A DNA stretch of 64,000 bases, from the NCBI GenBank assembly GCA_040400005.1, contig JBBARC010000007.1, positions 17,744 to 81,743 on the forward strand. The letters run 5' to 3'. The position numbers were made by a program, and so were the translations under genes. Source of the stretch: Acetobacteraceae bacterium. GTDB lineage: Bacteria; Pseudomonadota; Alphaproteobacteria; Acetobacterales; Acetobacteraceae. The notes beneath the pieces were generated by a model, which was not told where the DNA came from, did not search any database, and saw only the letters and a program-made list of their open reading frames with translations. This document shows, in pieces, positions 11,799 through 47,920 of the stretch (its first letter is position 1; the number at the start of each line of letters is the position of its first letter).

Positions 11799-11872
11799 AG
11801 AAGAACCTTCTTTTTCTCGAAGAAAAAGAAGCAAAAAGACTTTTATAAGTTTGGGGCGGATTGTGTTCGGGC
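11799..11872. repeat. AT-rich palindromic repeat family, solo arm plus partial core (copy E1)
   Basis: AGAAGAACCTTCTTTTTCTCGAAGAAAAAGAAGCAAAAAGACTTTTATAAG followed by TTTGGGGCGGATTGTGTTCGGG. Confidence 0.9.
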
Positions 11873-11882
11873 TTATCTGCCC

Positions 11883-12347
11883 TCAATCAATCTCTACTAG
11901 CGCTTCCACTTCGATGGGGGCACCTAGCGGCAACGACGCAACGCCTACCGTCGCCCTTGCATGGCGGCCGGCATCGCCAAACACCGCCATCGCCAAATCG
12001 GATGCGCCATTCATGATCATCGCGTGATTGGTAAAATCCGCCGTTGCCGCAATAAACCCACCCAAACGCACAATGCGCGCCACCCGATCCAGATCACCAT
12101 CTAGGGCGGCCGCCATCTGCGCCATCACATTAATAAAACACTGGCGCGCGGCGGCGCGGGCGTCGTCCTCGCTAATGGTACCGCCAAGCCGGCCCTGCCA
12201 GCCAAGCCGGCCCTCAACCATCGGCAGCTGCCCAGATATGGTCAGCAAATTACCCGAAAGCACATACCCCACATAACTGGCAACCGGCACTGCCGGCACC
12301 GGCAAGGTAATGCCCAACGCTGCCAGCCTATCCCCAATCAGGCTCAT
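11883..12347 (-). CDS. ridA: RidA/YjgF-family reactive-intermediate deaminase
   Basis: 154 aa with the typical YjgF fold string ...ARATVGVASLPLGAPIEVEA. ATGA overlap with the upstream gene. Confidence 0.85.
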   Translation of the reverse strand: MSLIGDRLAALGITLPVPAVPVASYVGYVLSGNLLTISGQLPMVEGRLGWQGRLGGTISEDDARAAARQCFINVMAQMAAALDGDLDRVARIVRLGGFIAATADFTNHAMIMNGASDLAMAVFGDAGRHARATVGVASLPLGAPIEVEALVEID

Positions 12348-13843
12348 GCGACCACCCGAAACGCCCGGCGCCTGGCGGGCGGGCTGCTGTCATCTTTGGG
12401 CAGATCTAACGGCAGCAACGGCGCGCGATCGCCGGGGCTGGCGGCGCTGTCATCCACCACATCCGCCGGCGGCGGTGGCAGGGTTTTGCCCAGATACTGG
12501 GCGGCCAGGCTGCGCATGACGTAATCGACGATCGAGGCGGCGTGGGTGACCCCATCGTCACCCTCTACCCGCCCGGCCGGGCCAAACCTGGTGAGCGCCA
12601 GGGCATCGACAAATTCCGCCACTGGCACACCGTGCTGCAAGCCGGTGGTGATGGCTTGGGCAAAGCTTTCGGCCAAGCCGCGCACCAGCGCGTTTTCGCC
12701 GGGCAAGGTGAGCGAGACTTCGCCCAAGCTGCCATCGGCGTAATCGCCGGCGCGTAAAAACAGCCGGTGGCCGCCGACCGAGACTTTGCGGGTAGTACTG
12801 GCGTGACGCACTGGCAGGGGACCTCGCGCGGCATTGGCGGCGGCAACGGCGGTTGCGGGTGGTGGGGCCGGCAAGGCCACTGGTGGCGCTGGCATGGCGC
12901 TTAAGTATGGGGCCACCGCCGCGTGCATGGCGGCGTGGGCGGCCAGATCGGCAATTTCGACCACCCTATCCCCCAGCAACGCGTGGGCGAATGCTGCTTC
13001 TGCGGTGATGTGGCGGGATGCGAGCCTGGCGCGGGTGGCATCGGTTAGCTGCGGTTTATCGGCACTGCCCGGCAGTACCAGTGCGTAGGCCGGCGCAATG
13101 CCGCCGGTTTCTACGCCCAGCAACGCATCGGCGGCGGTGGGCGCGAAAATGCCCGCACCCAAAGCCGCATCTGGGGCGCGCAACAAGGCTGATCGGGCTG
13201 CACTTGCTGCCTGCGCCAGCCCGCTAATGGCGCAATCACCCGGCGGCCACGGCCAGTTTGCCGCGGCTGCGAGCAGATCTAGCTGATCACCGTCCAGGCC
13301 ACGATCGACGGCGGCACGAAACAAGGCGGCAAGGCAGGCGGCGGTTGCCCGCGCGCAAGGCTGGTCGTAGGCGAGGCCCAGGGACGCCAGCACATCATCC
13401 AGCCCGGAAAAACCGATTTCGCGGTTTTGGCCGGCACCATCCCATTTTTTTGTGGCGTGGGCGGCCACCCGGGCAGCATCGGCAAAGCCGGTGATATCGA
13501 ACCCAGTGTCGGGGCTGAAAAATGCCCGCAGGTTAAGCACGAACCCTGGCACCCCTGGGGCATTTTGCCAGATCACCGGATTGGCGGTGGCCCGCCGGCT
13601 GATCAGTAACTGGTGCAGGGCGGCATCGAGTGCCGCATCGCCCGCCGCGATGGGACCGATCCAGGCTTGCGCTGCCACGGGTAAATTCACCGGGCCATCG
13701 CCCGGCACCAAGGCTGCTATCGCGTTGGCCGCGGTATCATCCCAGCTTGCCGGGAGGGTGACCATTCTCTGCGCGCAATCAGGATCGGCGCTGGCCGCCA
13801 CCTGCCGCATCCGCACACCTTGCCACAGCCTGAGATTTTTCAT
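12344..13843 (-). CDS. Truncated class II ribonucleotide-reductase-like protein (TSCPD-type C-terminal domain)
   Basis: The C-terminal GGHRLFLRAGDYADGSLGEVSL...GLQHGVPVAEFVDALALTRFGPAG...AASIVDY is collinear with the NrdJ C-terminal domain. Residues 95-180 resemble an RNR barrel segment. Only 499 aa. Confidence 0.7.
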   Translation of the reverse strand: MKNLRLWQGVRMRQVAASADPDCAQRMVTLPASWDDTAANAIAALVPGDGPVNLPVAAQAWIGPIAAGDAALDAALHQLLISRRATANPVIWQNAPGVPGFVLNLRAFFSPDTGFDITGFADAARVAAHATKKWDGAGQNREIGFSGLDDVLASLGLAYDQPCARATAACLAALFRAAVDRGLDGDQLDLLAAAANWPWPPGDCAISGLAQAASAARSALLRAPDAALGAGIFAPTAADALLGVETGGIAPAYALVLPGSADKPQLTDATRARLASRHITAEAAFAHALLGDRVVEIADLAAHAAMHAAVAPYLSAMPAPPVALPAPPPATAVAAANAARGPLPVRHASTTRKVSVGGHRLFLRAGDYADGSLGEVSLTLPGENALVRGLAESFAQAITTGLQHGVPVAEFVDALALTRFGPAGRVEGDDGVTHAASIVDYVMRSLAAQYLGKTLPPPPADVVDDSAASPGDRAPLLPLDLPKDDSSPPARRRAFRVVA

Positions 13844-13967
13844 GGGAACCAGTGAAGCACCAAACCCGCGACTCGGAAACAGGTATTTTGCGTGTCAACC
13901 GGGGTTAGCCCACTAAATGTTGTGGATAACCTGCGTGGGGGCGGTGAAAGCGGGTGAATGCAAAAAA

Positions 13968-14112
13968 GTAAGAATTTTCTTTTTTCTGAAGAAAAAAGAA
14001 ACAAAAAAGACTTTATTGATGTTTTGTTCGGAAGACGCGGTTGCAGGGTTGCCCCAGGCCCGGCGTATAAAAGTCTTTTTGCTTCTTTTTCTTCAGAAAA
14101 AAAGTTTCTAAC
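13968..14112. repeat. AT-rich palindromic repeat family, complete copy (E2): arm, GC-rich core, inverted arm
   Basis: GTAAGAATTTTCTTTTTTCTGAAGAAAAAAGAAACAAAAAAGACTTTATT ... core GTTCGGAAGACGCGGTTGCAGGGTTGCCCCAGGCCC ... TATAAAAGTCTTTTTGCTTCTTTTTCTTCAGAAAAAAAGTTTCTAAC. Confidence 0.95.
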
Positions 14113-14197
14113 TTTCAGCCGATTGCCCGGTTAAAAGCGCCGCAGATTGCCCACGCTTCACTGGACCATCGCCCGCGTTCTGCCTATATGCCAAACC

Positions 14198-14566
14198 ATG
14201 AGCATTGGCACCACTTTGCATACCTTCCTGCATGGCAGCCCGGTGGGCCGCGATGCCGCTGGCAACGCCTATTACCAAGCGCGCCGCCTGCCGCCTGCGG
14301 GTGAGCGCCGGCGCCGTTGGGTGATTTATGCGGGCGAGATTGATAGCACCGCGGTGCCGGCCGAATGGCATGCCTGGCTGCATTATACGACCGATGCGCC
14401 GTTGCCCGACACCGGCCGCAAACCCTGGCAGAAAACCCATATCGCCAACCAAACCGGCACGGCGCAGAGTTATCGCCCGCCCGGCCATGATTACGCCGGC
14501 GGCACCCGCGCGGCATCGGGCGGCGATTACGAAGCCTGGACCCCCGACACCCCCGCCCAAGGCTAA
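14198..14566 (+). CDS. NADH:ubiquinone oxidoreductase subunit NDUFA12-family protein
   Basis: G.D..GN.YY......RRWVIY.G..D.S.VP.EWH.WLH pattern. ATG at 14198. Confidence 0.85.
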   Translation: MSIGTTLHTFLHGSPVGRDAAGNAYYQARRLPPAGERRRRWVIYAGEIDSTAVPAEWHAWLHYTTDAPLPDTGRKPWQKTHIANQTGTAQSYRPPGHDYAGGTRAASGGDYEAWTPDTPAQG

Positions 14567-14571
14567 CCCGA

Positions 14572-15090
14572 ATGGCCAAACACAACGCGGTGGAAATTGC
14601 CACCGGCGCCCTGGTGTTGCTGGGGGCGGCATCGTTTCTGGCCTTTGCGCTGGCCAATACCGGCACGCGTATTCGTGGTGGTTATGAACTGACCGCAAGT
14701 TTTGATCATGTTGATGGGTTGGCGAGCGGATCAGAAGTGCGCATCGCTGGGGTTAAAATAGGCAGCGTTGAGGCGATTACGCTGGATCACGATACGTTTC
14801 AGGCGCTGGTGAAGTTTACTGTCGCCGATGGTGTGGCGTTGACCACCGACAGTTCGGCATCGGTTGCCTCCGACGGGTTGCTGGGCGGCAAATATTTGGC
14901 GATCGAAACCGGCGGCGAGGATAAAAACCTTGGGCCAGGCGGACATATCACCATCACCCAGGGGTCGATGAACCTGGAGAGCCTGATTGGTAAATATATT
15001 TTTGGCTCGACCGGTAACGGACTGGGCGATGGTAAGGCGCCGGCGAAACCCGATGCGGCCAAAGATGCCGCGGGGGCTGGGCTGAAATGA
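14572..15090 (+). CDS. mlaD: Outer-membrane lipid asymmetry protein MlaD (MCE domain)
   Basis: N-terminal TM segment followed by the MCE string F..V.GL..GS.VRIAGVKIGSV. Confidence 0.85.
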   Translation: MAKHNAVEIATGALVLLGAASFLAFALANTGTRIRGGYELTASFDHVDGLASGSEVRIAGVKIGSVEAITLDHDTFQALVKFTVADGVALTTDSSASVASDGLLGGKYLAIETGGEDKNLGPGGHITITQGSMNLESLIGKYIFGSTGNGLGDGKAPAKPDAAKDAAGAGLK

Positions 15091-15296
15091 CCCAACCTGA
15101 GGTGATTTGGCGCGCCGCCAACGGTGCCCCTATCGCCTGCCGCGATAGCCTGCGCGTGCTGCACGATAACGCCGATGAACTGCGCGGCGTGATGCAGGAT
15201 ATGTTTGATGATGCGATCCTGATTGGCGTGACGGACGCCGACATGCGCGAGCATTTGCGCGCCATGGTGGCAGATTTGGTTAGCCCGAAACAATGA
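15087..15296 (+). CDS. Hypothetical small protein (69 aa)
   Basis: Overlap-coupled on both sides within the mlaD-DUF2155 operon. No family recognised. Confidence 0.5.
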   Translation: MTQPEVIWRAANGAPIACRDSLRVLHDNADELRGVMQDMFDDAILIGVTDADMREHLRAMVADLVSPKQ

Positions 15297-15682
15297 AGCG
15301 CATTTTTCTGGTGGTTATGCTGGCGGCACTTGCGCCGGCAGCACGAGCCGCAACCCAAATCACGCCGGTGCCGATGTCACCGCCCGATAGCTGGGTCGCG
15401 GTAAAATCGGGCACCGTGCGGGTGCTGAACAAAATCGATGCGCGGGTGACCAAAATCACCCTGGGCTTGGGCGAAACCAAAGTGGTGGAAGGTGCCAGTA
15501 TTACCCTGGTTGCCTGTTTTGTGCGCCCGCCCGACCTGCCGATTGATAGCGCCGCCCATTTGCAGATTAAGGAACAGCGTGCCGATGCCACCCCGTTTGA
15601 GGGCTGGATGCTGCAAAACGAACCATCGATGACCGTTTACGAAGACCCCATTCATGATGTGCACCTGGAGGCCTGCCATTAG
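15293..15682 (+). CDS. DUF2155 domain-containing secreted protein
   Basis: Signal peptide plus VRVLNKIDARVTKITL...ITLVACFVRPPD, typical of DUF2155. Confidence 0.8.
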   Translation: MKRIFLVVMLAALAPAARAATQITPVPMSPPDSWVAVKSGTVRVLNKIDARVTKITLGLGETKVVEGASITLVACFVRPPDLPIDSAAHLQIKEQRADATPFEGWMLQNEPSMTVYEDPIHDVHLEACH

Positions 15683-16178
15683 CGCGGGTGCCCGCAAAAC
15701 AGCGCTGCTGGCACTGGCGCTGTGTGCGTTTCCTCTAAGCTTTGCCTGGGGCATGCAGATTTTTGAGCACCTGATCCCGTGCCCGCTGTGCCTGGTGGAA
15801 CGCTGGCCTTACTATTTTGGCACGGCACTGGCTGCGCTGGCGTTGGCCCTGCCGGGCCGAGCCGCGCGTGCCGTGCTGTGGTTGGTTACCGCTTGTTTGC
15901 TGGTATCGGTGGGGTTGGCGGCTGTTCATGCCGGCGTTGAATTTCACTGGTGGAAAAGCCCGCTGGCGGCGTGCAATGCGCCAAACCTGACTGGCTTGTC
16001 GTTGGCTGAACGCCTGGCCGCCATGCCGGCGGTGCCGCAGCGCCCGTGCGAAGACCCTGATTATCCGTTACCCTTTTTGCCGATCAGCTTTGTGCAGCTC
16101 GGCCTGCTTTACGCAATCTCGGCCGCCACCATGTTGTTATTCGTGCAACTGCGCGATGCGCGACGGAGATTTGAATGA
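15654..16178 (+). CDS. dsbB: Disulfide bond formation protein B family
   Basis: CPLCLVERWPYY motif and four predicted TM segments. Confidence 0.8.
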   Translation: MMCTWRPAISAGARKTALLALALCAFPLSFAWGMQIFEHLIPCPLCLVERWPYYFGTALAALALALPGRAARAVLWLVTACLLVSVGLAAVHAGVEFHWWKSPLAACNAPNLTGLSLAERLAAMPAVPQRPCEDPDYPLPFLPISFVQLGLLYAISAATMLLFVQLRDARRRFE

Positions 16179-16708
16179 CTCTGCCAGGCGATACACTAGA
16201 AACTGACCGCATTGCTGCGATGATCCGGGTTGATCATGCGGGTGAATACGGCGCCAAACGTATTTATCAGGGCCAGCTTGCGGTGCTTGGCCGTGGAGAG
16301 CACGGCGATGTGCTGCGCCATATGCAGGCGCAGGAAGAGGCGCATTTACAAAAATTCACGCATTTGATCGCCGAGCGCCGGGTGCGTCCCACGGCTTTGT
16401 TGCCGTTTTGGCATGTTGCTGGTTTTGCGCTGGGGGCGGCAACGGCGGCAATGGGGCCCAAGGCTGCCATGGCCTGCACCGTTGCGGTGGAAGAGGCGAT
16501 CGACGACCATTACCGCGCCCAGAGTGATAGCTTGGGTGAGCCCGAAGCCGATTTACGCGACACCATCGACGGTTTTCGCGCCGAGGAGCTGGAACATCGC
16601 GAAATCGCGCTGGATCGTGGCGCTGAACAGGCCCCCGCCTACCGCCTGCTGCGCGCCGTGATAAAAGCCGGGTGTCGCACGGCAATCGCCATCAGCGAAC
16701 GCATCTAA
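16175..16708 (+). CDS. coq7: Demethoxyubiquinone hydroxylase (COQ7 family)
   Basis: IRVDHAGEYGAKRIYQGQ and EE.H di-iron motifs. ATGA overlap with dsbB. Confidence 0.9.
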   Translation: MTLPGDTLETDRIAAMIRVDHAGEYGAKRIYQGQLAVLGRGEHGDVLRHMQAQEEAHLQKFTHLIAERRVRPTALLPFWHVAGFALGAATAAMGPKAAMACTVAVEEAIDDHYRAQSDSLGEPEADLRDTIDGFRAEELEHREIALDRGAEQAPAYRLLRAVIKAGCRTAIAISERI

Positions 16709-16724
16709 CCTCGGGTGTGCTGCG

Positions 16725-16752
16725 GGCAGGGGGGCAATCAAGCCCCCCTGCC
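16725..16752. terminator. Bidirectional terminator-like hairpin between convergent coq7 and the TonB receptor gene
   Basis: GGCAGGGGGGC-aatcaa-GCCCCCCTGCC, an 11-bp perfect GC-rich stem. Weak U tracts. Confidence 0.5.
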
Positions 16753-16757
16753 AATCA

Positions 16758-22527: not shown

Positions 22528-22542
22528 GGGCCAGGGTAAGGC

Positions 22543-22662
22543 TAAGACTCTTTTTTTTCTGAAGAAAAAGGAGCAAAAAGACTTTTATTACGCTGGGACT
22601 GGGGCTGCGATGCCACCGCGAATCCCGGCCCGACATATAAAAAGTCTTTTGCTTCTTTTCTT
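22543..22662. repeat. AT-rich palindromic repeat family, copy E3 (left arm, core in inverted orientation, proximal part of right arm), interrupted by a MITE
   Basis: TAAGACTCTTTTTTTTCTGAAGAAAAAGGAGCAAAAAGACTTTTATTA ... core ... TATAAAAAGTCTTTTGCTTCTTTTCTT. Confidence 0.9.
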
Positions 22663-22852
22663 GTAACTGCCCAGGTAGGGGTGAGAACGCTAACTGCCTC
22701 AAAAAACTCAACTCTCGGCGCGCAGGCCATTACGTTACCGACGCAAACTGTCCCTTTTTCGGCAGTTTGCGTATCGAAACCAGACCTAAACCCGAAGTCG
22801 CCATAAATGTTTTCAATGGGTTGTGTAGCTTCGACCCTACCTGGGCAGTTAC
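22663..22852. mobile_element. 190-bp MITE with perfect 18-bp terminal inverted repeats and an 8-bp target-site duplication
   Basis: Left end GTAACTGCCCAGGTAGGG (22663-22680). Right end CCCTACCTGGGCAGTTAC (22835-22852). Flanked by CTTTTCTT at 22655-22662 and 22853-22860. Removing the insert plus one TSD restores the intact repeat arm seen at 28351-28387. Confidence 0.85.
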
Positions 22853-22882
22853 CTTTTCTTCAGAAAAGAAGGGTCTTGCCGT
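22853..22882. repeat. Distal remainder of the right arm of repeat copy E3
   Basis: CTTTTCTTCAGAAAAGAAGGGTCTTGCC matches the ends of other arms. Confidence 0.85.
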
Positions 22883-22946
22883 TACCTTGCCTAGCCCGGC
22901 GTTTTGCCCATACCATCACGGTGTTTTCCTGGGAGTAAACACGGCC

Positions 22947-24374
22947 ATGCAGGTTGAGATGCTGATTGGCGATCGTTTCGTCGCGGGTGAGGGGGAGGTT
23001 GAGCGGATTGTCGACCCCCGCACGGGGGCTGCGGTGATTGATTTACCGCAAGCATCGGCGGCGCAGTTGGATCAGGCGGTGGTGGCGGCGCGGGCGGCGT
23101 TTGAAACTTTTGGCCGTGCCCCGCCGGTGGAGCGGGCCGGTTATCTGCTGAAGCTGGCCGATGCGGTGGAGGCAAATGCGGAGAGTTTAGCGGCGCTGGA
23201 GCACGCCAATACGGGTAAGCCACTGCATGCGGTGTTGCGTGATGAAATTCCCGCCATTGCTGATGTGTTCCGCTTTTTTGCCGGTGCTACGCGCACTATG
23301 CCGGGCTTGGCGGCCGGAGAATACATGGCCGGCTACACCAGCATGTTGCGGCGCGACCCGGTGGGAGTAGTGGGATCGATCGCGCCATGGAATTACCCGT
23401 TGATGATGGCGGCGTGGAAGATTGGCCCGGCGTTGGCGGGTGGCAATACGGTGGTGATTAAGCCATCGGAAAATACGCCGCTGAGTTTGCTAGCTTTGGG
23501 GCCATTGCTTGCTGAAATTTTGCCGCCTGGGGTTGTGAACATTGTGCTTGGTCGCGGTGCGGTGGTGGGGCAGGGCATGATTGATCATGCTGGAATAGAT
23601 ATGATATCGCTGACTGGCGATATTGGTACTGGACGAAAAGTGATTGCCGCTGCGGCAAAATCGATTAAGCGCACGCATTTGGAACTGGGTGGCAAGGCGC
23701 CGGTGATTGTGTTTGACGATGCTGATATAGACAGCGTTGTTGAAGGGTTGCGGGCGTTCAGTTTTTATAATGCTGGGCAGGATTGCACGGCGGCTTGCCG
23801 GGTTTATGCTGGCGCCAAGATTTATGACCGGCTGGTGGCTGATCTTGCCGGTGCTGCCAGTTCCATTGTGTTTGACCGCGCGGAAGATAGTGAAAACGAA
23901 ATTCCGCCGTTGATTTCAGCGCGGCAACGCGATCGGGTTAGCGGTTTTGTTGATCGTGCGGCGGCAGAAAAACACATTGAGGTTGTTGCTGGCGGGAAGG
24001 CGGGTGTTGGTGGTGGGTTTTTCTATGAGCCGACTGTGATTGCGGGTGCCCGCCAGGCCGATGAGATTGTGCAGCGGGAAGTGTTTGGCCCGGTTGTATC
24101 GGTTACCCGGTTTGATGATGTCGATCAGGCGATAGGCTGGGCGAACCAATCGGAATATGGGCTTGCATCATCTGTATGGTCGGGCAGTGTTGGGCGCGCG
24201 ATGGAGGCGGCATCGCGTTTGCGTTACGGCTGCACCTGGGTGAACTGCCATTTTATGCTGGTGAGTGAAATGCCGCATGGTGGGCTGAAAAGCTCTGGCT
24301 ACGGTAAGGATCTTTCTATGTTGTCGGTGGAGGATTATACGGTGGCCCGCCACGTTATGGTTAAACTCGGGTGA
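22947..24374 (+). CDS. patD: NAD-dependent aldehyde dehydrogenase, gamma-aminobutyraldehyde dehydrogenase-like
   Basis: About 475 aa from the ATG at 22947. ALDH motifs ELGGKAP and GQDCTAACR. Adjacent to a YdcSTUV-like transporter, as in E. coli ydcSTUV-patD. Confidence 0.8.
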
Positions 24375-25402
24375 GCAAAGCGGCCCAGGATCTGCCGCCA
24401 GCGGTTATTCGGCTTGCTGGCATTCGAAAAACCTATGGCGCGGCGGTGGCGGTGGCATCGCTTGATCTTACCATTGCGCGCGGAACGTTTTTTACCTTGC
24501 TGGGTCCGTCTGGGTCGGGGAAAACCACAACTTTGCGGATGATCGCCGGCTTTGAATATCCTGATACTGGGGTGATTGAACTTAACGGCCAGGATGTATC
24601 CAGCCTGCCGCCCAACGCGCGCAATGTGAACACGGTGTTTCAGGATTACGCGCTGTTTCCGCACATGAGCGTGCTGGATAACGTCGCCTATGGGTTGATT
24701 GCCCGTAAAATTGACAAAGCCAGCGCCCTTAAGCGTGCCCAGGCAACGCTGGATCAGGTGCGTTTGGGCGACTTTGCCGCGCGCAAGCCGGGGCAATTAT
24801 CCGGCGGCCAGCGCCAGCGTGTGGCGTTGGCGCGGGCCATTGTTAATCGGCCGCAAGTGTTGTTGCTTGATGAACCGCTTGGCGCGCTTGATCTAAAGCT
24901 GCGCCACCAGATGCAGATTGAGCTTAAGCAACTGCAAAGCGAGACCGGCATTACTTTTGTGTATGTCACCCACGATCAGGAAGAAGCCCTGACCATGAGT
25001 GACCGTGTGGCGGTGTTCAATGAAGGCCGCATTGTGCAACAGGGATCGCCGGCTGACATTTACGAACGCCCGGCGAACGCGTTTGTTGCGGGCTTTGTTG
25101 GCACGTCCACCTTGTTAGATTGGCACGGCGAAACTTTGATGCTGCGCCCGGAAAAGCTGCGCGTGGCAGGGCCAGGCACAGCCGCCTACCCCGGCGAAGT
25201 GGCGGTGCCGGGTATGGTAAAGACGGCTGCCTATTTTGGTTCGTTTACTCGCCTGACGATATGTTTGGAAAACGGGGCGACACTGATTGCCGCTTGGCCG
25301 CATGGCCACGCGGTGGATGCGGCCAACGCGCCGCAGGTTAATACGCCAGTGACGATCATTTGGCGCGACGATGACGCCTACCGGCTTGCCAAAACGGCAT
25401 GA
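24371..25402 (+). CDS. ABC transporter ATP-binding protein (PotA/YdcT-like)
   Basis: Walker [10 protein letters not shown], signature [14 protein letters not shown], Walker B LLLDEP. Confidence 0.9.
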
Positions 25403-25428
25403 CCGCAATTTTTTGGGGAGAGTGCACA

Positions 25429-26547
25429 ATGCGTGGATTTGCATATATGTTACTGGCTAGCTGCATCGCCGTACCGGCCCTTGCTGGCACCATGAAAACC
25501 ATCGGCAAGGGCGAAGGTGCGGTCAACATCGTCGCCTGGGAAGGCTACGCGCAAGATGACTGGGTAAAACCGTTTGAAGTGCAAACCGGCTGCAAGGTTA
25601 ACCACAAATACGCTGGCAGTTCCGATGAAATGGTAGCCCTGATGCGCCAGGGCGGTGGCAGCCAATACGATCTGGTATCTGCATCGGGTGATGCAACGTT
25701 ACGGCTGATTGCTGGCAAAAATGTGCAAGCGATTAATATGTCGCTTATCCCTGCCTACAAAGATTTTATCCCCCAGCTGCAATCGCCTGATTTTAACACG
25801 GTCAAGGGCGTGCATTATGGCGTTTCCTATGAATGGGGGCCCAATGTGCTGATGTGGAACACCGCCAAACTTAAAACCGCGCCCACCAGCTGGGCGGTGA
25901 TCTACGATAAAGCACATGCCGGCCAGATCACTATCCCGGACAACGCCATTCAAATCGCCGATGCTGCCCTTTACCTATCCAAAAACGAACCTGCTCTGGG
26001 TATTAAAGACCCTTATGAGCTGACCCAGCCGCAAATGGATCGGGTTGAGGCGCTGCTTAAAGACCAAAAATCGCTGCTGAAAAAATACTGGGCACTGGCA
26101 TCTGACGAAATCGATTTGTTTAAAAACGGCGATGCTATGGTGGGTGCCGCTTGGCCCTACATGACCAATTCGCTGAAAGATGCCAAAGTGCCGGTGGCCG
26201 ACACGATTCCCAGCGAAGGTGCCACGGGTTGGGCCGATACCTGGATGGTATCCGCCAAGGCAGCCCACCCCAATTGCGCCTATCAGTGGATAAATTTTGT
26301 CACCACACCAAAAGTGCAAGCCCAGCAGGCGCTGTATTTTGGCGAATCGCCCGCCAACACCAAGGGCTGCGCCGAGATGGATAAGATCACCCCCGGCAGT
26401 TGTGCCAAATACCATGCCGATGCCCCGGCAAGCTATTTCGAACAGATCCATTTCTGGAAAACGCCGATGAAAGCTTGCGGCAACGGCCATAATGATTGTC
26501 TCGATTACAGCGCCTGGCAGCAGGTGTGGCAGCGCGTGAAAGGCTGA
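25429..26547 (+). CDS. ABC transporter periplasmic substrate-binding protein (PotD/PotF/YdcS-like)
   Basis: Signal peptide and a family-1 solute-binding protein of about 370 aa within the pot-like operon. Confidence 0.8.
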   Translation: MRGFAYMLLASCIAVPALAGTMKTIGKGEGAVNIVAWEGYAQDDWVKPFEVQTGCKVNHKYAGSSDEMVALMRQGGGSQYDLVSASGDATLRLIAGKNVQAINMSLIPAYKDFIPQLQSPDFNTVKGVHYGVSYEWGPNVLMWNTAKLKTAPTSWAVIYDKAHAGQITIPDNAIQIADAALYLSKNEPALGIKDPYELTQPQMDRVEALLKDQKSLLKKYWALASDEIDLFKNGDAMVGAAWPYMTNSLKDAKVPVADTIPSEGATGWADTWMVSAKAAHPNCAYQWINFVTTPKVQAQQALYFGESPANTKGCAEMDKITPGSCAKYHADAPASYFEQIHFWKTPMKACGNGHNDCLDYSAWQQVWQRVKG

Positions 26548-26555
26548 TCGCGCAG

Positions 26556-27428
26556 ATGGCATCAGCGGCAGAAAGGGTATTGTGGCGCCGGCCGCGCTTG
26601 GCCATTGCGGCGTTGGCAGCTCTTCCTGCCGCCTGGTTTCTGGGGTTTTATCTGGCGGCCTTGGCGGCACTGTTTGTGTCGTCATTCTGGTCGGTCGATC
26701 AGCTTTCGGGCGAGTTACTGCCCGGCTGGTCGCTGGATAATTTTCGCACGCTGCTCACCGAACCAACCTACCGCATCGTTGCCCAGCGCACCTTGTTTCT
26801 TTCGGCGGCGGTTACCATCACCGATGCGCTGCTCGCTTGGCCTTTTGCCTACTACATGGCACGTGCTGCCAGCCCACGCGGCCGTGCGGCGCTAATGGCG
26901 GCGGTTATGCTGCCATTGTGGTCTAGCTATCTTGCCCGCGTTTACGCCTGGCGCCTGATATTGTCGCATGACGGCGCGCTCAACTGGGCGCTGCATCTGG
27001 TGGGGCTGCCATCACAGAGTTTTGCTTATACTAACTGGGCGATGTGGGTGGTGTTTTCCTATCTGTGGCTGCCCTTTATGATCTTGCCGGTCTATGCGGC
27101 CATGGAACGTATCCCGCAATCTTTGCTGGAAGCATCAGATGACCTCGGCGCCGGCAGCTTTATGACGATACGCCGTATTGTTGTGCCAATGGTGCTGCCC
27201 GGTCTTGTTGCTGGTTCCATCTTCACTTTTTCGCTTACGTTGGGCGATTTCATCACCCCCATGCTGGTGGGCGGCCCTAGCTCAGATTTTATTGGGAACG
27301 TTGTTTATACCAGTGTCGGGGTTGCCAATAACGTGCCGTTTGCTGCCGCCTACGCGGTGTTGCCGCTACTAGTTATGGCGTTCTACTTGATGATCGCACG
27401 CCGCACCGGCGCGTTTGAGGCACTATGA
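26556..27428 (+). CDS. ABC transporter permease (PotB/YdcU-like)
   Basis: Multi-TM protein with the EAA-type loop LLEASDDLGAG...RRIVVPM. Confidence 0.85.
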   Translation: MASAAERVLWRRPRLAIAALAALPAAWFLGFYLAALAALFVSSFWSVDQLSGELLPGWSLDNFRTLLTEPTYRIVAQRTLFLSAAVTITDALLAWPFAYYMARAASPRGRAALMAAVMLPLWSSYLARVYAWRLILSHDGALNWALHLVGLPSQSFAYTNWAMWVVFSYLWLPFMILPVYAAMERIPQSLLEASDDLGAGSFMTIRRIVVPMVLPGLVAGSIFTFSLTLGDFITPMLVGGPSSDFIGNVVYTSVGVANNVPFAAAYAVLPLLVMAFYLMIARRTGAFEAL

Positions 27429-28246
27429 GCCGCGCCATCACAACCGCCCGGCCGGGTAAAGCGATGGCGACCGCTGCCCTTACCATTGCGGCTGGTGCTG
27501 TGTTGCTGTTCCTGGTTATACCCATCGCCATCATCCTGGCGTACGCGTTCTCCGCCTCTCCCGTGCAAAGCTGGCCAATTCCCGCCTTCACGCTGCACTG
27601 GTTCACCGATACTTTCGCCGATGAAGAGATCCGTGCAGCATTCGTTCTATCAGTACAGGTCGCTGCCCTTTCCACTGTGATCTCGCTCGTGCTTGGCACA
27701 CTGGCCGCTTTCGCTGTCAGCCGGATGCAATCCGCCGCCCGTGAGGCGGTTTCCTTCGTGCTTATTCTGCCCATTGCGTTGCCAGGTATCCTCACCGGTA
27801 TGGCGCTAAACGCTTATTTTGTGGCGATCAACATGCCACTAAATTTCACCACAATTGTCATTGGCCACGCCACTTTCTGCATCGTTATTGTTTACAACAA
27901 TGTCCTTGCCCGGTTGCGCCGCCTGCCCCGCAGCCTTGCCGAAGCCTCCGCCGATCTAGGGGCCAGCCCGGCCATGACTTTTCGCCGCGTATTGCTGCCC
28001 ATGCTTGCCAGTGCCATCGGCGCCGGCGGGCTGCTGGCCTTCGCACTCTCGTTTGATGAAGTCATTGTCACCACCTTTACCGCCGGCGTGCAAACCACAC
28101 TACCCCTATGGATCCTCGGCGCCATTCGCCTCGGGCAACGGCTGCCAGAAGTGAATGTGGTGGTTTTCTGCGTTATTGTTATGACGCTTATTCCCGTATT
28201 TCTGGCGCAGCGGCTTATGGGAGATTCGGGGAGTTTGCATAAATAG
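27425..28246 (+). CDS. ABC transporter permease (PotC/YdcV-like)
   Basis: Multi-TM protein with the EAA loop LAEASADLGASPAMTFRRVLLPM. ATGA overlap with the upstream permease. Confidence 0.85.
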   Translation: MSRAITTARPGKAMATAALTIAAGAVLLFLVIPIAIILAYAFSASPVQSWPIPAFTLHWFTDTFADEEIRAAFVLSVQVAALSTVISLVLGTLAAFAVSRMQSAAREAVSFVLILPIALPGILTGMALNAYFVAINMPLNFTTIVIGHATFCIVIVYNNVLARLRRLPRSLAEASADLGASPAMTFRRVLLPMLASAIGAGGLLAFALSFDEVIVTTFTAGVQTTLPLWILGAIRLGQRLPEVNVVVFCVIVMTLIPVFLAQRLMGDSGSLHK

Positions 28247-28250
28247 AAGC

Positions 28251-28387
28251 AGGAACTTTCTTTTTCTGAAGAAAAAGAAACAAAAAAACTTTTACTAATT
28301 GGGTTCGGAATTCGCGGTGGCAGGGAAGCCCCAGGCCCAGCATAATAAAAGTCTTTTGCTTCTTTTCTTCAGAAAAGAAGGTTCTTC
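28251..28387. repeat. AT-rich palindromic repeat family, complete copy (E4)
   Basis: AGGAACTTTCTTTTTCTGAAGAAAAAGAAACAAAAAAACTTTTACTAA ... GGTTCGGAATTCGCGGTGGCAGGGAAGCCCCAGGCCC ... ATAAAAGTCTTTTGCTTCTTTTCTTCAGAAAAGAAGGTTCTTC. Confidence 0.95.
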
Positions 28388-28400
28388 ACCTTACCTTTTT

Positions 28401-36454: not shown

Positions 36455-36460
36455 CGGCCG

Positions 36461-42444: not shown

Positions 42445-43674
42445 ATGAGGACAGTACCCGTGCATCCTTTCTACGATCACTGCCGCGCAACACTGGCTGA
42501 CATCCACACCCAAGGGCGCTATCGGCGTTTCTCGCCGCTGGCCAAGCAGGCCGGCCGCTACCCGCGCTACCGCATGGACCAGGACGGTCTTTCGCGCGAA
42601 GTGATCGTCTGGTCATCTAACGACTACCTCGGAATGGGCACCGATCCCGTGCTGATTGAAGCAGCCGTAGAAGCCGCGCAAAAATACGGCACCGGCGCCG
42701 GCGGCACCCGCAACATAGCCGGATCATCCCCGCTGCACCGCGCGCTGGAAGCGGAATTGGCCAGCCTGCACGGCAAGGAAGCGGCGCTGTTGTTCGTGTC
42801 CGGCTACGTTTCCAACCAGGCCAGCCTGCAAACCATCCTGCAAAGCTTCCCCAACTGGCAGGTGTTTTCGGATGCCAAAAACCACGCCAGTATGATCGCC
42901 GGCATTAAATCGGCCCGCCACGCCACCTGCCATGTATTCGCCCATAACGACATGGACGATCTGCGCGCGCGCTTGGCCGCCGCCCCCAAAGACGCGCCCA
43001 AAATGATTGCCTTCGAAAGCGTCTATTCGATGGACGCCGATATCGCGCCGATCGAGGAGATTGTGGCACTGGCGGAAGAATTCGGGGCGCTGACCTATTT
43101 GGATGAAGTCCACGCCGTTGGCATGTACGGCCCATCGGGTGCCGGCGTCGCTGAACGCGAAGGCCTGGCCCACCGCATCGACATCATTGAAGGCACGCTG
43201 GCCAAAGCTTTCGGCTGCCTGGGTGGTTACATCACCGGATCGGCCGAGCTGGTTGATTTTGTGCGCTCCACCGCATCAGGCTTTATCTTTACCACATCCT
43301 TGCCGCCAACCGTGGTGGCGCCGGCGCTGGCCAGTGTGCGCCACGTGCGCCGCGACCACACCCGCCGCGCCGCCCTGTTTGCCCGCGCTGAAACCCTAAA
43401 GGCAAAACTCGATCGTGCCGGCCTGCCACGCCTGCCATCGGTTAGCCACATCGTGCCCGTGCACATTGGCGATGCAGCGCTGTGCAGCGATGTCAGCCGC
43501 CGCCTGCTGGACGATTTCGGCCATTACGCAACCCCGATTAATTACCCAACGGTTCCCCGCGGCACCGAACGCCTGCGCCTGACGCCGGGGCCGTTTCATA
43601 CCGATTCCATGATGGATAATTTGGTTGAGAGCCTGACTAAGATTTTGCGGCCAGCTAAGGCTGTGGCGGCTTAA
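42445..43674 (+). CDS. hemA: 5-aminolevulinate synthase
   Basis: GRYRRFSPL...[11 protein letters not shown] and a PLP-enzyme body of about 409 aa from the ATG at 42445. Confidence 0.9.
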
Positions 43675-43678
43675 TAAA

Positions 43679-43797
43679 AGGGTCTTCTTTTCTGAAGAAA
43701 AGAAGCAAAAGACTTTTATCATGTGGGGACGGGGGGACAGCTCGCCGGCGGGTGCTGGGATGCCTGCTTAAGAAAGTCTTTTTGCTTCGTTTTCTCC
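43679..43797. repeat. AT-rich palindromic repeat family, copy E5 (left arm and core; right arm decayed)
   Basis: AGGGTCTTCTTTTCTGAAGAAAAGAAGCAAAAGACTTTTATCA ... core ... TTAAGAAAGTCTTTTTGCTTCGTTTTCTCC. Confidence 0.85.
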
Positions 43798-43869
43798 AGG
43801 ACACGGATGGGCTTGCGGCGTCTCTTCGTTCTCACTTGTGCTGCTATCTATTTCGGTTGGTTTTGTATT

Positions 43870-44778
43870 ATGAAAGCGATTTTTGATACCCGGACCGGTT
43901 CTGGTTATGACGATGACGTGACCCGGCGCTACCATTTTCCCATTCGGTATCTACCTGAGGCGAAACGCGCGTTGGGGGATTGGATTGTGTATCGCGAACC
44001 GCGGCGCGGCGGCGGGCGAGAAGGCTATGTGGCTGTTGCGCGACTGGAAAGTATCATACCTGATCCGTCCGACCCAAAACTCGCTTACGGCATGGTGTCG
44101 GATTATCTCGCTTTTGATTGCGTCGTGCCGTTGCGGCACAGCGAGGGGTTTTCTGAAGATCGACTCGATTTGGTGGCCGACTCCTCACGGTTGGGGGCCG
44201 CTTTACAAGGTAAGTCGATACGGGCGATTTCGGATGTTGAGTTTGGTGCCATTGTGCGCGCTGGCCTAATTCAAACCTTGGCACCGGCGAACGCCATACG
44301 GTTGGGGTTGGACGCGGCTGAAAGCGGCGCGGATATCGGTGGTTTGGCACACGCCCCAATAGAGGATCAGGCGCGGCGTATTGAGGCGATGTTGGTTAAT
44401 CGTAAGATACGGGATGCTGCGTTTCGGCGTGGGGTATTGGATGCATATGATAATCGCTGCGCGGTGACTGGTATTCGAATGGTGAATGGCGGTGGACGGG
44501 CGGAGGCGCAGGCGGCGCATATTTGGCCGGTGTCTGATGGTGGGCCCGATGTGGTGCAGAATGGATTGGCGTTATCTGGCACGATCCATTGGCTGTTTGA
44601 TCGGCACCTTATTTCCTTGACCGATGATTGCGCGCTGCTGGTGGCGCATAACCGCGTGCCAGGTGAGTTGCGTGGATTGTTTGCGCAGCAATTGGATCGG
44701 ATTTTCTTGCCGAAGGATCCAAGCTTTTGGCCGCATCCGGCCTATATCCGCCGGCATAGAGAAGCGTTTGTCGGGTAA
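43870..44778 (+). CDS. HNH endonuclease with an N-terminal non-HNH domain (candidate modification-dependent restriction enzyme)
   Basis: HNH_2-type motif CAVTG...AAHIWP......VQNGLALSGTIHWLFDRHLIS. The N-terminal 130 aa (GSGYDDDVTRRYHFP...WIVYRE) precede it. GC3 is lower than in neighbouring genes. Confidence 0.8.
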   Translation: MKAIFDTRTGSGYDDDVTRRYHFPIRYLPEAKRALGDWIVYREPRRGGGREGYVAVARLESIIPDPSDPKLAYGMVSDYLAFDCVVPLRHSEGFSEDRLDLVADSSRLGAALQGKSIRAISDVEFGAIVRAGLIQTLAPANAIRLGLDAAESGADIGGLAHAPIEDQARRIEAMLVNRKIRDAAFRRGVLDAYDNRCAVTGIRMVNGGGRAEAQAAHIWPVSDGGPDVVQNGLALSGTIHWLFDRHLISLTDDCALLVAHNRVPGELRGLFAQQLDRIFLPKDPSFWPHPAYIRRHREAFVG

Positions 44779-44840
44779 GCGTTGCGACGGGCCTGAGTTG
44801 GCGAGGGCGCCGGCGGTAGCGCATTTGGCCTTACAAAATT

Positions 44841-44860
44841 GTACGTAATCGAGTACGTAA
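44841..44860 (+). promoter_or_regulatory. Putative YefM-YoeB operator: two GTACGTAA boxes (TACGTA palindromes) 12 bp centre-to-centre
   Basis: GTACGTAAtcgaGTACGTAA ends 4 bp before the yefM ATG. The E. coli yefM-yoeB operator has paired TGTACA cores at 12-bp spacing (recalled from the literature). Confidence 0.55.
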
Positions 44861-44864
44861 ACTC

Positions 44865-45137
44865 ATGCGCATAACATCATACAGCGAGCTTCGGCGGCAC
44901 TTGGCGGCGACATTGGATAGTGTGATTAATGATCACGCGCCGGTGGTGATTACGCGTGACCGAGGAAAGCCGGCCGCGGTATTGATATCGCTGGAAGATT
45001 TTGCTTCCTACGAGGAGACCAGGCATTTGCTGCGCAGCCCAAAAAATGCGGCGCGGTTGCTAGAGGCGGTGCGGGCTTTGGATGCGCCGCACGCGATTGA
45101 TGAGCGTGGTGGGAGCGTTCGCGCGTTAGCGGATTGA
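44865..45137 (+). CDS. yefM: Type II antitoxin, YefM/Phd family
   Basis: MRITSYSELRRHLAATLDSVINDHAPVVITRDRGKPAAVLISLEDFASYEET. Confidence 0.9.
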   Translation: MRITSYSELRRHLAATLDSVINDHAPVVITRDRGKPAAVLISLEDFASYEETRHLLRSPKNAARLLEAVRALDAPHAIDERGGSVRALAD

Positions 45138-45388
45138 AACTGGTTTTCCATGCACAGGCCTGGGAGGATTACCTTTACTGGCAAGCGGCTGACCGCAACG
45201 TGCTGCTGCGGATCAATGGGTTGATTAGGGAGGCGTGCCGCACGCCGTTTGCCGGCACAGGCAAGCCTGAGCCGTTGAGGAATGAGCTTTCCGGTTGGTG
45301 GTCACGGCGGATCACGCCGGAGCACCGCTTGGTGTATCGGCCGCAGAATGACAGCCTGTTGATCGCGCAATGCCGCCATCACTATTGA
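45134..45388 (+). CDS. yoeB: Type II toxin, YoeB/Txe family mRNA interferase
   Basis: W.DYLYWQ..D...L.RIN.LI....R.PF.G.GKPEPL...LSGWWSRRI..EHRLVY. TTG start overlaps the yefM stop. Confidence 0.9.
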   Translation: MKLVFHAQAWEDYLYWQAADRNVLLRINGLIREACRTPFAGTGKPEPLRNELSGWWSRRITPEHRLVYRPQNDSLLIAQCRHHY

Positions 45389-45422
45389 CGTTAAAGCAGA
45401 AGTTTTAGAAACGTTCTTTACC

Positions 45423-45476
45423 ATAAAACCAAAAGTTCTTTTGTTTCTTTTTCTTCAGAAATAGAAAATTCTGACC
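45423..45476. repeat. AT-rich palindromic repeat family, solo arm (E6)
   Basis: ATAAAACCAAAAGTTCTTTTGTTTCTTTTTCTTCAGAAATAGAAAATTCTGACC. Confidence 0.85.
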
Positions 45477-45481
45477 TTCCC

Positions 45482-47692
45482 CTACCTGTGCGTCAAAACC
45501 CTGACCAGCTCAGTGGTCGTGCCCAATGTTGTGATTTTCAGCACAGCACTAAGCACAATAGGATAAGTGCCCGTGGCAAGGCTCGCGGGCACCGTCACGC
45601 GCCCGGAAAATTCATTGGTGGCGCGGCGGTAAGTCAGGCATTGCGGGGCGGCGCCACCGATGGTGGCGGTCACCGCGCAGCTGCCCAAGGATCGCGCCAG
45701 GGTTTCGGTGATCGGCGTTGCGCTGGCATCGGCCAGTTGCAGGCTAACCGTCACAGTATTGCCGGCACGCACGGGTTTGGCCGGGGGCGGGGCAAGGTTG
45801 GTCAGCGCCAGGCCGACCACATAAGTCAGGCTGGCGGTGCCGGTGGTGCCAGCGGTGTTGGTGGCGGTACAGATCAAGCTTTTGGCACCTAGCATGGTGG
45901 CATCGGGCGGCGCGCAACTGGCGCTGGCAATGCCGGACAGGCTGGCGGCGGGGTTGGCCGCGGCGGTCACAACTGCGCCGAGCAAGGGTTGGGCCGGGGT
46001 GATGGTTGGGGTGAGCGCTGGTATGGCGCTGTCTATGTTGATGGTGGCGAGGGACGCCGCACTGGTGGCGCCGGCGGCATCGGTTGCTGTGCAAGAAACG
46101 GCGTTGGCCCCGGGGGTGGTAACTAACACGGCGGCGTTGGCCGCTGTGGTGGCGATGCCGGTTGGTGCGGCAAGCGTCGCACCAGTGCATTGCAGGCTCG
46201 CGATGGTGCTGGTGGACGTGCTGGCGGCAAAGCTGCCGGTAACCGGGCTTGCGGCAAACCAGCCACTTGCGGGTGCTGCGGGCAGGCTAAGCGTCGCGGC
46301 AGGCGGCACCGCCGCTGGCAGGTTCACAATGGCGGTAAAAACATCGAAATTGGTGGCGCCGTTGGGGTTGTCGCCGGTGCTGTTGGAATTATCGGCCCAC
46401 GCCGGCACCAGGCGGCCGTTGGCAAAGGCGTTGCCGGTGTAATCACCGTAATCGGCTTTTTTAAACGCGGCGATGCTATTGGCCTGGTTAGACGTGCCAG
46501 CGCTGATCAAAAAATTGGCAGAAAAACTAGCACCACCATCGGTGCTGAAACTGCCGGCGTATTGGGCTGTATTGTTCAGCGGCGCATTGCGTGCATCGTA
46601 CCAGGTAACGGCCACGGCACCGGTGGATTGGTCCAGCGCAATACGCGGCAGAAACTGGCTGTTGGCGGTGGCATCATCGTTCACCCGCACAGGGTTGTGC
46701 CAGGTGACACCAAGATCATCGGATGTGGTGACAAAGATATTGGTATCTGGCCCGCCGGGGGCGGTGGCATCGGTATAAACCAAGTAGACACGGCCGCGGT
46801 GGGGGCCGGTTGTGCGGTCTATCGCCAGGCCTGCTTCGGGGTCGATGCCCCAGTTGGGTTGGGCGGGGATATTAGTGAAGCCGCCCAGGTTGGTGGCGGC
46901 CACTTGCACCGGCGGGTTGAAAGGCGCGGCGCCTAACCCGTCGGGGTCGGTTTGGGTATAAATGGTGCCGCCGCTGCCGCCCGAATTGGGGCCGTAGGTG
47001 ACAATCGCTTCGCCCGCAGGGCCCACTGCGATATCGCCAAAGTTTACCCCCACCGGCTGGCTCGGCAGCAATTGCGAAGTAAACGCACCGACCTTGCCGG
47101 TGCCGGTCACGGCAGCCGAGGACACCGCGATGCCGCCCTGGGTAAAATAGGTCAGCCACACACTACCTGGCGCGCCGTTGCTGCCCGGGCCAACGGCCAC
47201 TGTCGGCTGGTCGCCCGCCAGCGGCAGGTTGGTTGCTGGCAGCAACAACACAGGGGCTGTGCTGACCGGCGATTTGAAATTTTGGCCGCCATCAGTGCTC
47301 AGCGCGAGGCCGACGTAGCTGGCAGAACGGGTGGACCCTTGCACCAAATAGGTGATGAACAAATTGCCAAAACTGTCCCAGGCAAGGCTCACGTTACCAT
47401 AAGCGCGCGGCAGGTCGCCGGCGGCGGGAATAGGCGAAATCGCGATGATTTTGTGTGCCCAACTGATGCCGGCATCTCTGCTGTGGGCGATCGCCAGGCC
47501 GCCGGTTTCGTTGCGGGCGGCAATAAACATTTCTGTGGGGTCGGCAGGGTTTATGGCGACCGCGGGTTCGTATTGGTTACCAGGCGCTTGGGATAGGTTG
47601 ATGTTGGGGCCAACAACGGGCGCAGTTTGGGCGAAGGCGGGGGCGATGGCGGTTATGGCGATGCAGGTGGCCAAAAGGGTTTTTTTAAACAT
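45482..47692 (-). CDS. Secreted BNR/Asp-box repeat (sialidase-fold) protein with Ala/Thr-rich Ig-like C-terminal region
   Basis: Signal peptide. Asp-boxes SRDAGISW, STDGGQNF, SDDLGVTW and STDGGASF. Confidence 0.75.
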   Translation of the reverse strand: MFKKTLLATCIAITAIAPAFAQTAPVVGPNINLSQAPGNQYEPAVAINPADPTEMFIAARNETGGLAIAHSRDAGISWAHKIIAISPIPAAGDLPRAYGNVSLAWDSFGNLFITYLVQGSTRSASYVGLALSTDGGQNFKSPVSTAPVLLLPATNLPLAGDQPTVAVGPGSNGAPGSVWLTYFTQGGIAVSSAAVTGTGKVGAFTSQLLPSQPVGVNFGDIAVGPAGEAIVTYGPNSGGSGGTIYTQTDPDGLGAAPFNPPVQVAATNLGGFTNIPAQPNWGIDPEAGLAIDRTTGPHRGRVYLVYTDATAPGGPDTNIFVTTSDDLGVTWHNPVRVNDDATANSQFLPRIALDQSTGAVAVTWYDARNAPLNNTAQYAGSFSTDGGASFSANFLISAGTSNQANSIAAFKKADYGDYTGNAFANGRLVPAWADNSNSTGDNPNGATNFDVFTAIVNLPAAVPPAATLSLPAAPASGWFAASPVTGSFAASTSTSTIASLQCTGATLAAPTGIATTAANAAVLVTTPGANAVSCTATDAAGATSAASLATINIDSAIPALTPTITPAQPLLGAVVTAAANPAASLSGIASASCAPPDATMLGAKSLICTATNTAGTTGTASLTYVVGLALTNLAPPPAKPVRAGNTVTVSLQLADASATPITETLARSLGSCAVTATIGGAAPQCLTYRRATNEFSGRVTVPASLATGTYPIVLSAVLKITTLGTTTELVRVLTHR

Positions 47693-47870
47693 GGTGAGGT
47701 GGTGCTTTCCCGCGTGTGACGACGACATCCCCGTCGTTATGCGGCGATGCTGACCACAGCCTGACGGGGATAGCGGGATCGCTAAAATGTGAAGTACTCT
47801 TGTGCACGAGCGCTTTTCCCCCGCCCCACCCGGCGCGCTGGCAGACGGTAGTGCCTCTTCGCTGCCATCA

Positions 47871-47920
47871 TATCAGAAGTCTTTTTGTTTCTTTTTCTTC
47901 AGAAAAGAAAATTCTTACTT
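47871..47920. repeat. AT-rich palindromic repeat family, solo arm (E7), same orientation as E6
   Basis: TATCAGAAGTCTTTTTGTTTCTTTTTCTTCAGAAAAGAAAATTCTTACTT; abuts the cca stop codon. Confidence 0.85.

Follow-up and report, generated by a model that had tools for sequence, protein, structure and literature searches.

An AT-rich hairpin repeat between genes of Acetobacteraceae, probably a dispersed REP/BIME-like element

The window analysed here is a 64 000 nt stretch of the genome of an Acetobacteraceae bacterium (assembly GCA_040400005.1, contig JBBARC010000007.1, positions 17 744 to 81 743). It carries seven copies, E1 to E7, of an AT-rich repeat whose unit is an arm with a conserved hairpin. 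A preliminary description of this DNA had proposed that the copies bracket discrete gene cassettes, either as operon punctuation or as recombination and insertion hot spots. We consider it likely that E1–E7 are copies of a dispersed intergenic repeat, resembling repetitive extragenic palindromes (REPs) and bacterial interspersed mosaic elements (BIMEs), that has multiplied in Acetobacteraceae genomes, and that the apparent bracketing is a by-product of its density. Genes appear bracketed because the copies are dense and intergenic, not because they mark cassettes. The AT-rich hairpin repeat family is apparently undescribed so far. Dispersed intergenic palindromic repeats are a known class, to which the element adds a new member that extends across the bacterial family.

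The hairpin arm and its distribution

A repeat search of the window returned a single AT-rich arm family at seven places between 11.8 and 47.9 kb. The 30 nt arm core has six matches at ≤ 3 mismatches versus 0 expected, and a hidden Markov model (HMM) derived from the arms gives 12 hits, which make up exactly seven loci with zero hits elsewhere (Table 1). The number of copies originally reported was therefore correct. E2, E3, E4 and E5 are full elements (+ arm followed by − arm) and E1 (+), E6 (−) and E7 (−) are solo arms. Paired arms in the window are inverted and 76–97% complementary.

The arm is ∼ 50 nt long and has three parts. The outer part holds two to three short AAG-type motifs (e.g. 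GGTAAGG..AAGAA), the middle part is a 10 bp A/T-rich hairpin, CTTCTTTTTC-TGAA-GAAAAAGAAG and variants, and the inner part consists of a small palindrome, CAAAAAGACTTTT, followed by a G+C-rich stretch. Two arms placed head-to-head around a G+C-rich spacer form an element of 130–170 bp. The spacer between the arm cores measures 42–49 nt (median 46), with minor modes near 85 and 105 nt. An iterated HMM found about 350 arms in 823 kb of repeat-bearing DNA. The 208 elements counted there include 104 pairs in the order + then −, 93 solo arms and just 5 pairs in the order − then +.

Covariation within the stem was counted on ungapped, centred 32-mers from 208 unique arms, as a MAFFT alignment of centred arms misregistered the stem halves. 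Variable stem pairs are Watson–Crick in 86–94% of cases versus 33–53% in column shuffles (maximum 0.62). Two to three pair types occur at the variable positions and pairing stops sharply after ten pairs. Stem variants of the types CTTC..GAAG, GTTC..GAAC, CTGC..GCAG and GTCC..GGAC are found together in one genome, and the lengths of the T-run and the A-run covary. These compensatory changes show that structure constrains the arm hairpin. G-T mismatches are as common in the stems as A-C mismatches and therefore give no sign of constraint on a one-strand RNA. The two arms of an element tend to differ: of 131 pairs, 99 join a GTTC..GAAC arm to one of the CTTC..GAAG type, to which solo arms mainly belong. 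Spacer identity is 0.67 within a genome versus 0.57 between genomes (P = 3e-25), which speaks for amplification within genomes, and an arm core of ∼ 37 nt is near-invariant across genera.

The exact 26 nt core pattern was used to scan a species-representative genome collection. It occurs in at least 114 stretches from at least 59 assemblies, almost all of which are labelled Acetobacteraceae or Rhodospirillales; the few carrier contigs under other labels are rich in G+C and were probably binned wrongly. Among the matches listed, the carriers include Gluconacetobacter, Novacetimonas, Neokomagataea, Asaia, Acidocella, Roseomonas, Rhodovarius and Rhodovastum, with type strains of Gluconacetobacter, Novacetimonas, Neokomagataea, Pseudoroseomonas and Rhodovarius. 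The median G+C content of repeat-bearing loci is 67%. The densest unselected locus (L119, OZ240673.1, 1010996–1032480; loci of relatives are given L numbers), which was fetched via its TSCPD gene and not via repeats, has 19 arms (∼ 13 loci) in 21.5 kb, ∼ 8% of its DNA, and a copy at nearly every transcription-unit boundary of ordinary housekeeping genes. The remaining unselected loci have 0 or 1 arm each.

Rfam gave no match to the whole window at gathering scores, and in E-value mode E4 produced only sub-threshold chance hits to AU-rich hairpin families. Nothing on annotated plasmids describes the element. The core sequence was not found in the searchable literature, which also held nothing specific on REPs or on miniature inverted-repeat transposable elements (MITEs) in acetic acid bacteria. 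REPs of the CGTC type have been stated to be missing from Acetobacteraceae (Di Nocera 2013, PMC3733652). Lichenicola cladoniae, a member of the family, is listed as very rich in extragenic palindromes in a paper that names no motif for them (RepRanger, PMC12306157).

Placement relative to genes and occupancy of orthologous sites

All seven loci are intergenic, which for seven random points has a probability of about 4e-8 at a coding fraction of ∼ 0.91. Six of them overlap a stop codon or sit 0–23 nt from one. E4 fills the entire 154 nt gap between two converging stop codons, those of an ABC permease (28246) and a LysR gene (28401), E6 overlaps the stop of the BNR gene (45482–45484) and E7 covers the final codons and the stop codon of cca (47919–47921). 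The non-random placement that had been noted is thus real as regards intergenic position. The bracketing of units is uninformative in itself: a copy is present in 7 of the 25 intergenic gaps of ≥ 60 nt in the window, and since copies are this dense and intergenic, neighbouring copies must enclose transcription units. The loci cluster in the central 36 kb (7/13 gaps versus 0/12 elsewhere), which is only mildly unusual, the boundaries having been chosen post hoc.

Table 1. Coordinates of the repeat copies, the units between them and the nested insert (positions in the window).
Feature	Position	Strand	Description
E1	11788..11865	+	Solo arm; nhmmer E = 8e-17; core hairpin 11807–11831; ridA stop (11883) on one side, FemAB-like start (about 11755) on the other
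E2	13959..14123	+ arm 13959–14034, − arm 14047–14123	Full element; arm HMM; divergent gap, TSCPD gene/NDUFA12
E3 left arm	22531..22609	+	nhmmer E = 2e-19; 4 nt past TetR stop codon
E3 right arm, inner part	22618..22662	−	Interrupted by insertion
E3 right arm, outer part	22853..22890	−	Upstream of aldehyde dehydrogenase start (22947)
E4	28243..28400	+ arm 28243–28316, − arm 28323–28400	Full element; arm HMM
E5	43664..43801	+ arm 43664–43738, − arm 43767–43801	+ arm over hemA stop codon (43672–43674)
E6	45411..45490	−	Solo arm; between converging yoeB (stop 45388) and BNR gene
E7	47854..47932	−	Solo arm; between BNR start (47728) and cca
Unit 1	11883..13843	−	RidA/YjgF 11883–12347; TSCPD-domain protein 12344–13843 (Pfam)
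Unit 2	22947..28246	+	Aldehyde dehydrogenase and ABC importer (ATPase, binding protein, two permeases) (Pfam)
Unit 3	43870..45388	+	HNH_2 endonuclease, YefM antitoxin, YoeB toxin (Pfam)
Unit 4	45482..47728	−	748-aa BNR/Asp-box protein between E6 and E7 (Pfam, weak match)
MITE-like insert	22663..22852		190 bp; unrelated to arms, nested in E3 right arm

In the related loci, 99 elements lie in tandem gaps, 57 in convergent and 26 in divergent ones, and 3 inside genes; the background gaps of > 80 nt in the same loci number 130, 43 and 52, respectively. Convergent gaps are enriched (31% versus 19% in the background) and divergent gaps depleted (14% versus 23%; chi-square P = 0.0055), percentages that are approximate because the gene caller was crude. 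The median distance from stop codon to element is 9–17 nt, and 113 of 216 distances are ≤ 20 nt. As a description of placement, operon punctuation therefore remains an apt term: the copies stand between transcription units, close to stop codons and with a preference for convergent gaps.

Punctuation could also be the reason for their existence. On that explanation the elements are mainly selected by the host as bidirectional intrinsic terminators, insulators or mRNA 3′-end stabilizers, and their conservation reflects function and not mobility. Since both strands of a full element show A-tract, stem and U-tract in this order (GAAGCAAAAA-GACTTTT-[G+C-rich spacer]-AAAAGTC-TTTTTGCTTC), a role as bidirectional terminator is plausible. 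Folding of the complete E4 gives a long hairpin (−52.3 and −55.5 kcal/mol, z −3.8 and −4.6). The position of copies next to stop codons and their enrichment in convergent gaps fit selected function as well, as does the near-identity of the core across genera. However, many element spacers fold no better than expected, and heterotypic pairing makes the long stem weaker at the very positions that covary. Solo arms, 45% of the elements, show no orientation bias to the upstream gene in tandem contexts (20 versus 24), and ∼ 14% of copies, E2 among them, lie in promoter regions between divergent genes. On the sense strand of the upstream gene G-U mismatches are not in excess over A-C mismatches (41 versus 34, P = 0.49), so that RNA-specific constraint leaves no sign. 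A simple terminator scan flagged only the core hairpins of E1 and E5, amid much noise, and the corresponding sites of colinear relatives have no element. A purely RNA-level function gets no support from the tests of orientation and strand, and we regard host-selected punctuation as a possible but rather unlikely main explanation.

The occupancy of orthologous sites could be followed around unit 1 (RidA and a TSCPD protein with > 1,000 full-length homologues). The order TonB receptor-COQ7-DsbB-DUF2155-MlaD-NDUFA12<>TSCPD-RidA-FemAB (window 20.4 to 10.8 kb) is colinear in L117/L118, the closest relative with context (identities: TSCPD 67%, RidA 69%, FemAB-like protein 69%, TonB receptor 70%, beta-helix protein 84%), and zero arms are present in L117/L118. 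Two parts of this order, COQ7-DsbB-DUF2155-MlaD-NDUFA12<>TSCPD-RidA and TSCPD-RidA-FemAB, are kept in L135–L138 and L139, loci with no arm at all. NDUFA12<>TSCPD likewise remains a pair in L120, which has no element in the gap or the block, and in L119, where a full element occupies the gap that has E2 in the window; we take the L119 copy to be an independent one. E1 is absent from the orthologous RidA-FemAB gap in L117 and L139, and E2 from the orthologous NDUFA12<>TSCPD gap in L117, L120 and L135. As colinear relatives occur with and without copies, E1 and E2 are repeats of variable presence within a core block that is itself conserved. Judged by this gene order, unit 1 is such a core block and no cassette. 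The preliminary description had itself named conservation of a unit in the same context in repeat-free relatives as evidence against cassettes, and this is what L117/L118, L135–L138 and L139 contain; where it could be tested, the hot-spot proposal fails.

Two further observations were made in this block. In L117 the RidA-FemAB gap (9158–9263) contains three tandem units of ∼ 15 nt (CTGGAACAGGTTGCA) where the window has E1. The region upstream of TSCPD (window 13880–13945, − strand; L117 7125–7200; L135 5310–5380) is conserved in four or five lineages and contains a perfect DnaA-box-like GTTATCCACAA and the motif CGCAAAATnnCTGTTTCCGAGTCGC; it may serve this gene as leader or regulatory site.

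Just 3′ of hemA, three different palindromic structures are found according to lineage: the window has E5, L116 a G+C hairpin and L121–L125 a 270 bp palindrome. This fits a picture in which gene 3′ ends are a niche for palindromic elements, and the best reading of the copies themselves is that they have been gained and lost at such ends. The ∼ 270 bp palindrome (TTCTAATACCAACTCGCCAAATGACTGACGTACCGGG...) belongs to the closest hemA relative (82% identity) and spans 30–290 nt past hemA. All five metagenome contigs (L121–L125) end within it or right after it, 90–290 bp past hemA.

Possible mobilization and the genes between copies

We infer that copies multiply inside genomes as those of a non-autonomous repeat. 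The hairpin, probably in single-stranded or cruciform DNA, would be the feature that a putative enzyme recognizes, and copies would survive where insertion harms least, just past stop codons. At such 3′ ends they may also serve as bidirectional terminators or 3′-end stabilizers.

Several points weigh against a REP/BIME-like dispersed repeat. A mobilizing enzyme was looked for and none was identified in the sampled DNA, and no gene family recurs beside or between arms in the repeat-bearing loci. Within-genome alignments of full copies and their flanks show no sharp ends and no flanking direct repeat; the ends fade. The 823 kb of repeat-bearing DNA yielded a single REP-associated tyrosine transposase (RAYT), and the REP at its flanks is a different one, G+C-rich and of the classic GTAG type. 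A purely selfish element would not usually keep a 37 nt core nearly identical from genus to genus, which suggests that the element serves the host or that a conserved protein recognizes it. The family statistics come from related loci picked via one core variant, among the matches listed, and genes in these loci were called with a home-made codon-usage program.

On a bolder proposal, the AT-rich nested palindrome would be a new class of host-maintained, genome-structuring element of Acetobacteraceae, in which heterotypic DNA hairpins or cruciforms with phased A/T tracts are bound by a putative conserved protein. A genome would have up to thousands of these installed past stop codons, where they would insulate topology or transcription, independently of RAYT or any known transposase. 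We consider this doubtful, more so than host-selected punctuation.

That the elements are true members of the REP family, mobilized by RAYT as REPs or as REPINs (REP doublets forming hairpins), is improbable. The hairpin unit with compensatory changes, the inverted doublets and singlets, the extragenic position and the long-term conservation would all suit it, but the GTAG or CGTC tag is absent and the arms are AT-rich, not G+C-rich. The carrier DNA (823 kb) was searched by tblastn, the query being an approximate sequence of an E. coli RAYT. The single homologue (L019, 2587–3081) is 50% identical to this query (E = 6e-54) and stands between REPs of the GTAGGGTGGGGTGC... type and not between AT-rich arms, and for this RAYT a link to the arms was rejected. 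In L019, from a bog metagenome-assembled genome of Acetobacteraceae, the RAYT gene and its inverted GTAG-tagged G+C-rich REPs (GTAGGGTGGGGTGC...) occupy 2513–3170, and a third copy of the REP lies at 3548–3576. They are a separate REP family within Acetobacteraceae.

The gene content of the bracketed units is as originally described (Pfam). Along the window, a FemAB-like gene, E1, RidA and TSCPD (the 'RNR-like' gene), E2 and the NDUFA12-MlaD-DUF2155-DsbB-COQ7 operon are followed by a TonB receptor, a beta-helix protein, TetR, E3, the aldehyde dehydrogenase with its ABC importer, and E4. Then come LysR, sarcosine oxidase, pgk-gap-tkt, hemA, E5, HNH_2-YefM-YoeB and E6, and finally the BNR protein, E7 and cca. 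E6 and E7 do flank the 748-aa BNR open reading frame (ORF) as solo arms in the same orientation. The units had also been said to look accessory, with lower G+C content at third codon positions (GC3). Bracketed genes have a GC3 of 0.647 versus 0.672 for the others (Mann–Whitney P = 0.17), unit 2 (0.58–0.65) is inside the range of the adjoining sox genes, and the BNR gene has typical codon usage (GC3 0.716). The accessory look holds for HNH, yefM and yoeB, the sole aberrant genes, with codon scores of 0.016–0.027 versus a mean of 0.135. This unit looks horizontally acquired and is the only one with such signs. Homologues of the HNH gene are found on 72 plasmids from many taxa; the top one (63% identical) lies in an island of plasmid pOT10-1 of Roseomonas sp. 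OT10 (L129, 223560–232456), and this context suggests a restriction or defence role. The island also holds a helicase-related gene, a sigma factor, Vsr, a cytosine methyltransferase (Dcm) and an IS5 transposase.

The sole contig obtained with YefM was a 4.2 kb metagenome contig identical to the window, and a metagenome scan with the LysR beside E4 gave distant paralogues only. The tkt-gap-pgk block upstream of hemA is common to a 78% relative, and the downstream side differs. In two relatives (61–63%) cca is directly followed by an ABC exporter, with no BNR gene. The neighbours of hemA and cca thus indicate that the hemA–cca interval is variable at long range.

A cassette model, with the repeats as recombination or insertion hot spots where gene cassettes come and go, could draw on this variability, on the foreign codon usage of HNH-yefM-yoeB and the plasmid defence islands that hold HNH homologues, on the direct repeats E6 and E7 around a single gene, and on the right (−) arm of E5, which is truncated in its hairpin beside the HNH unit. 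Yet we judge it very improbable, the least probable of the explanations considered: unit 1 is kept in the same context in four lineages without repeats there (L120 as well as those above), bracketed genes match the rest in GC3, no integrase, transposase or recombinase is present among the window genes (Pfam), L119 has its copies around housekeeping genes, and the hemA and cca relatives are just 61–82% identical, a distance at which breaks in synteny are common anyway.

E3 bears an insertion of another kind. Its right arm is interrupted by 190 bp that are delimited by comparison with the uninterrupted right arm of E4. The insert has perfect 18 bp terminal inverted repeats (GTAACTGCCCAGGTAGGG) and an 8 bp target duplication (CTTTTCTT, 22655–22662 and 22853–22860; two matches, 0.03 expected), and is present as a single copy in the window.

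Other repeats of the window are separate from the AT-rich family. A second intergenic family (7089–7155 and 53305–53371; 67 nt, 75% identical) has a GGCCC...GGGTC hairpin and a common CAACACTTAAGCGG motif and occupies gene gaps without an AT-rich element. About five tandem 30 nt repeats (58041–58190) lie at the start of a 1052-aa ORF without Pfam match (55032–58190, − strand), and about five tandem 15 nt repeats (3521–3601) lie near the start of an NHL/GSDH-like ORF.

Significance and comparison with known systems

The window holds a general caution, in that a dense intergenic repeat will always seem to bracket gene units; where this is testable here, the bracketed genes are conserved core genes. 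The family merits description in its own right, being conserved nearly base for base across a bacterial family, very abundant in some lineages, AT-rich within G+C-rich genomes and composed of two different hairpin arms. Metagenome assemblies will break at it. It is usable as a typing marker for Acetobacteraceae and is a candidate natural terminator or insulator part for industrial acetic acid bacteria.

Integron attC sites and gene cassettes resemble the present arrangement in having imperfect palindromic sites between units, and a toxin–antitoxin pair is found in one unit. In contrast to integrons, the window has no integrase and no R/L core sites, the units include multi-gene operons and conserved core genes in mixed orientations, and copies are dispersed over whole chromosomes. 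Bidirectional intrinsic terminators share the A-tract/stem/U-tract symmetry and the location directly past stop codons and between convergent genes. They differ from the AT-rich element in that the latter is one sequence family and not a set of independently evolved hairpins, has unoriented solo arms and places a sizeable minority of copies in promoter regions.

MITEs such as the Correia elements of Neisseria are likewise units of 130–170 bp whose inverted arms enclose a variable centre. They, too, may be present at an orthologous site or missing from it, form genome-specific subfamilies and can fold as a whole into a long hairpin. Unlike them, the AT-rich element has no detectable sharp termini or target-site duplication, solo arms are nearly as common as pairs, the internal hairpin and not the terminus is conserved, and no autonomous partner with the same ends was found in the sampled DNA.

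The closest comparison is with REPs and BIMEs of enterobacteria and REPINs of Pseudomonas. The AT-rich element departs from these in being AT-rich within genomes of 60–70% G+C, in having no GTAG/CGTC tag by the stem (the outer flank is variable and (G)TAAG/AAGCAAG-like), in its longer arm (∼ 50 nt) with three consecutive small palindromes or A/T tracts, and in that a search of 823 kb of carrier DNA showed no link to a RAYT. In common with them it has a short hairpin palindromic unit kept by compensatory changes, singlets and inverted pairs of two unit types (cf. BIME Y and Z) with linkers of fixed length, an extragenic location near gene 3′ ends and between convergent genes, and many copies per genome that are conserved above the genus level.

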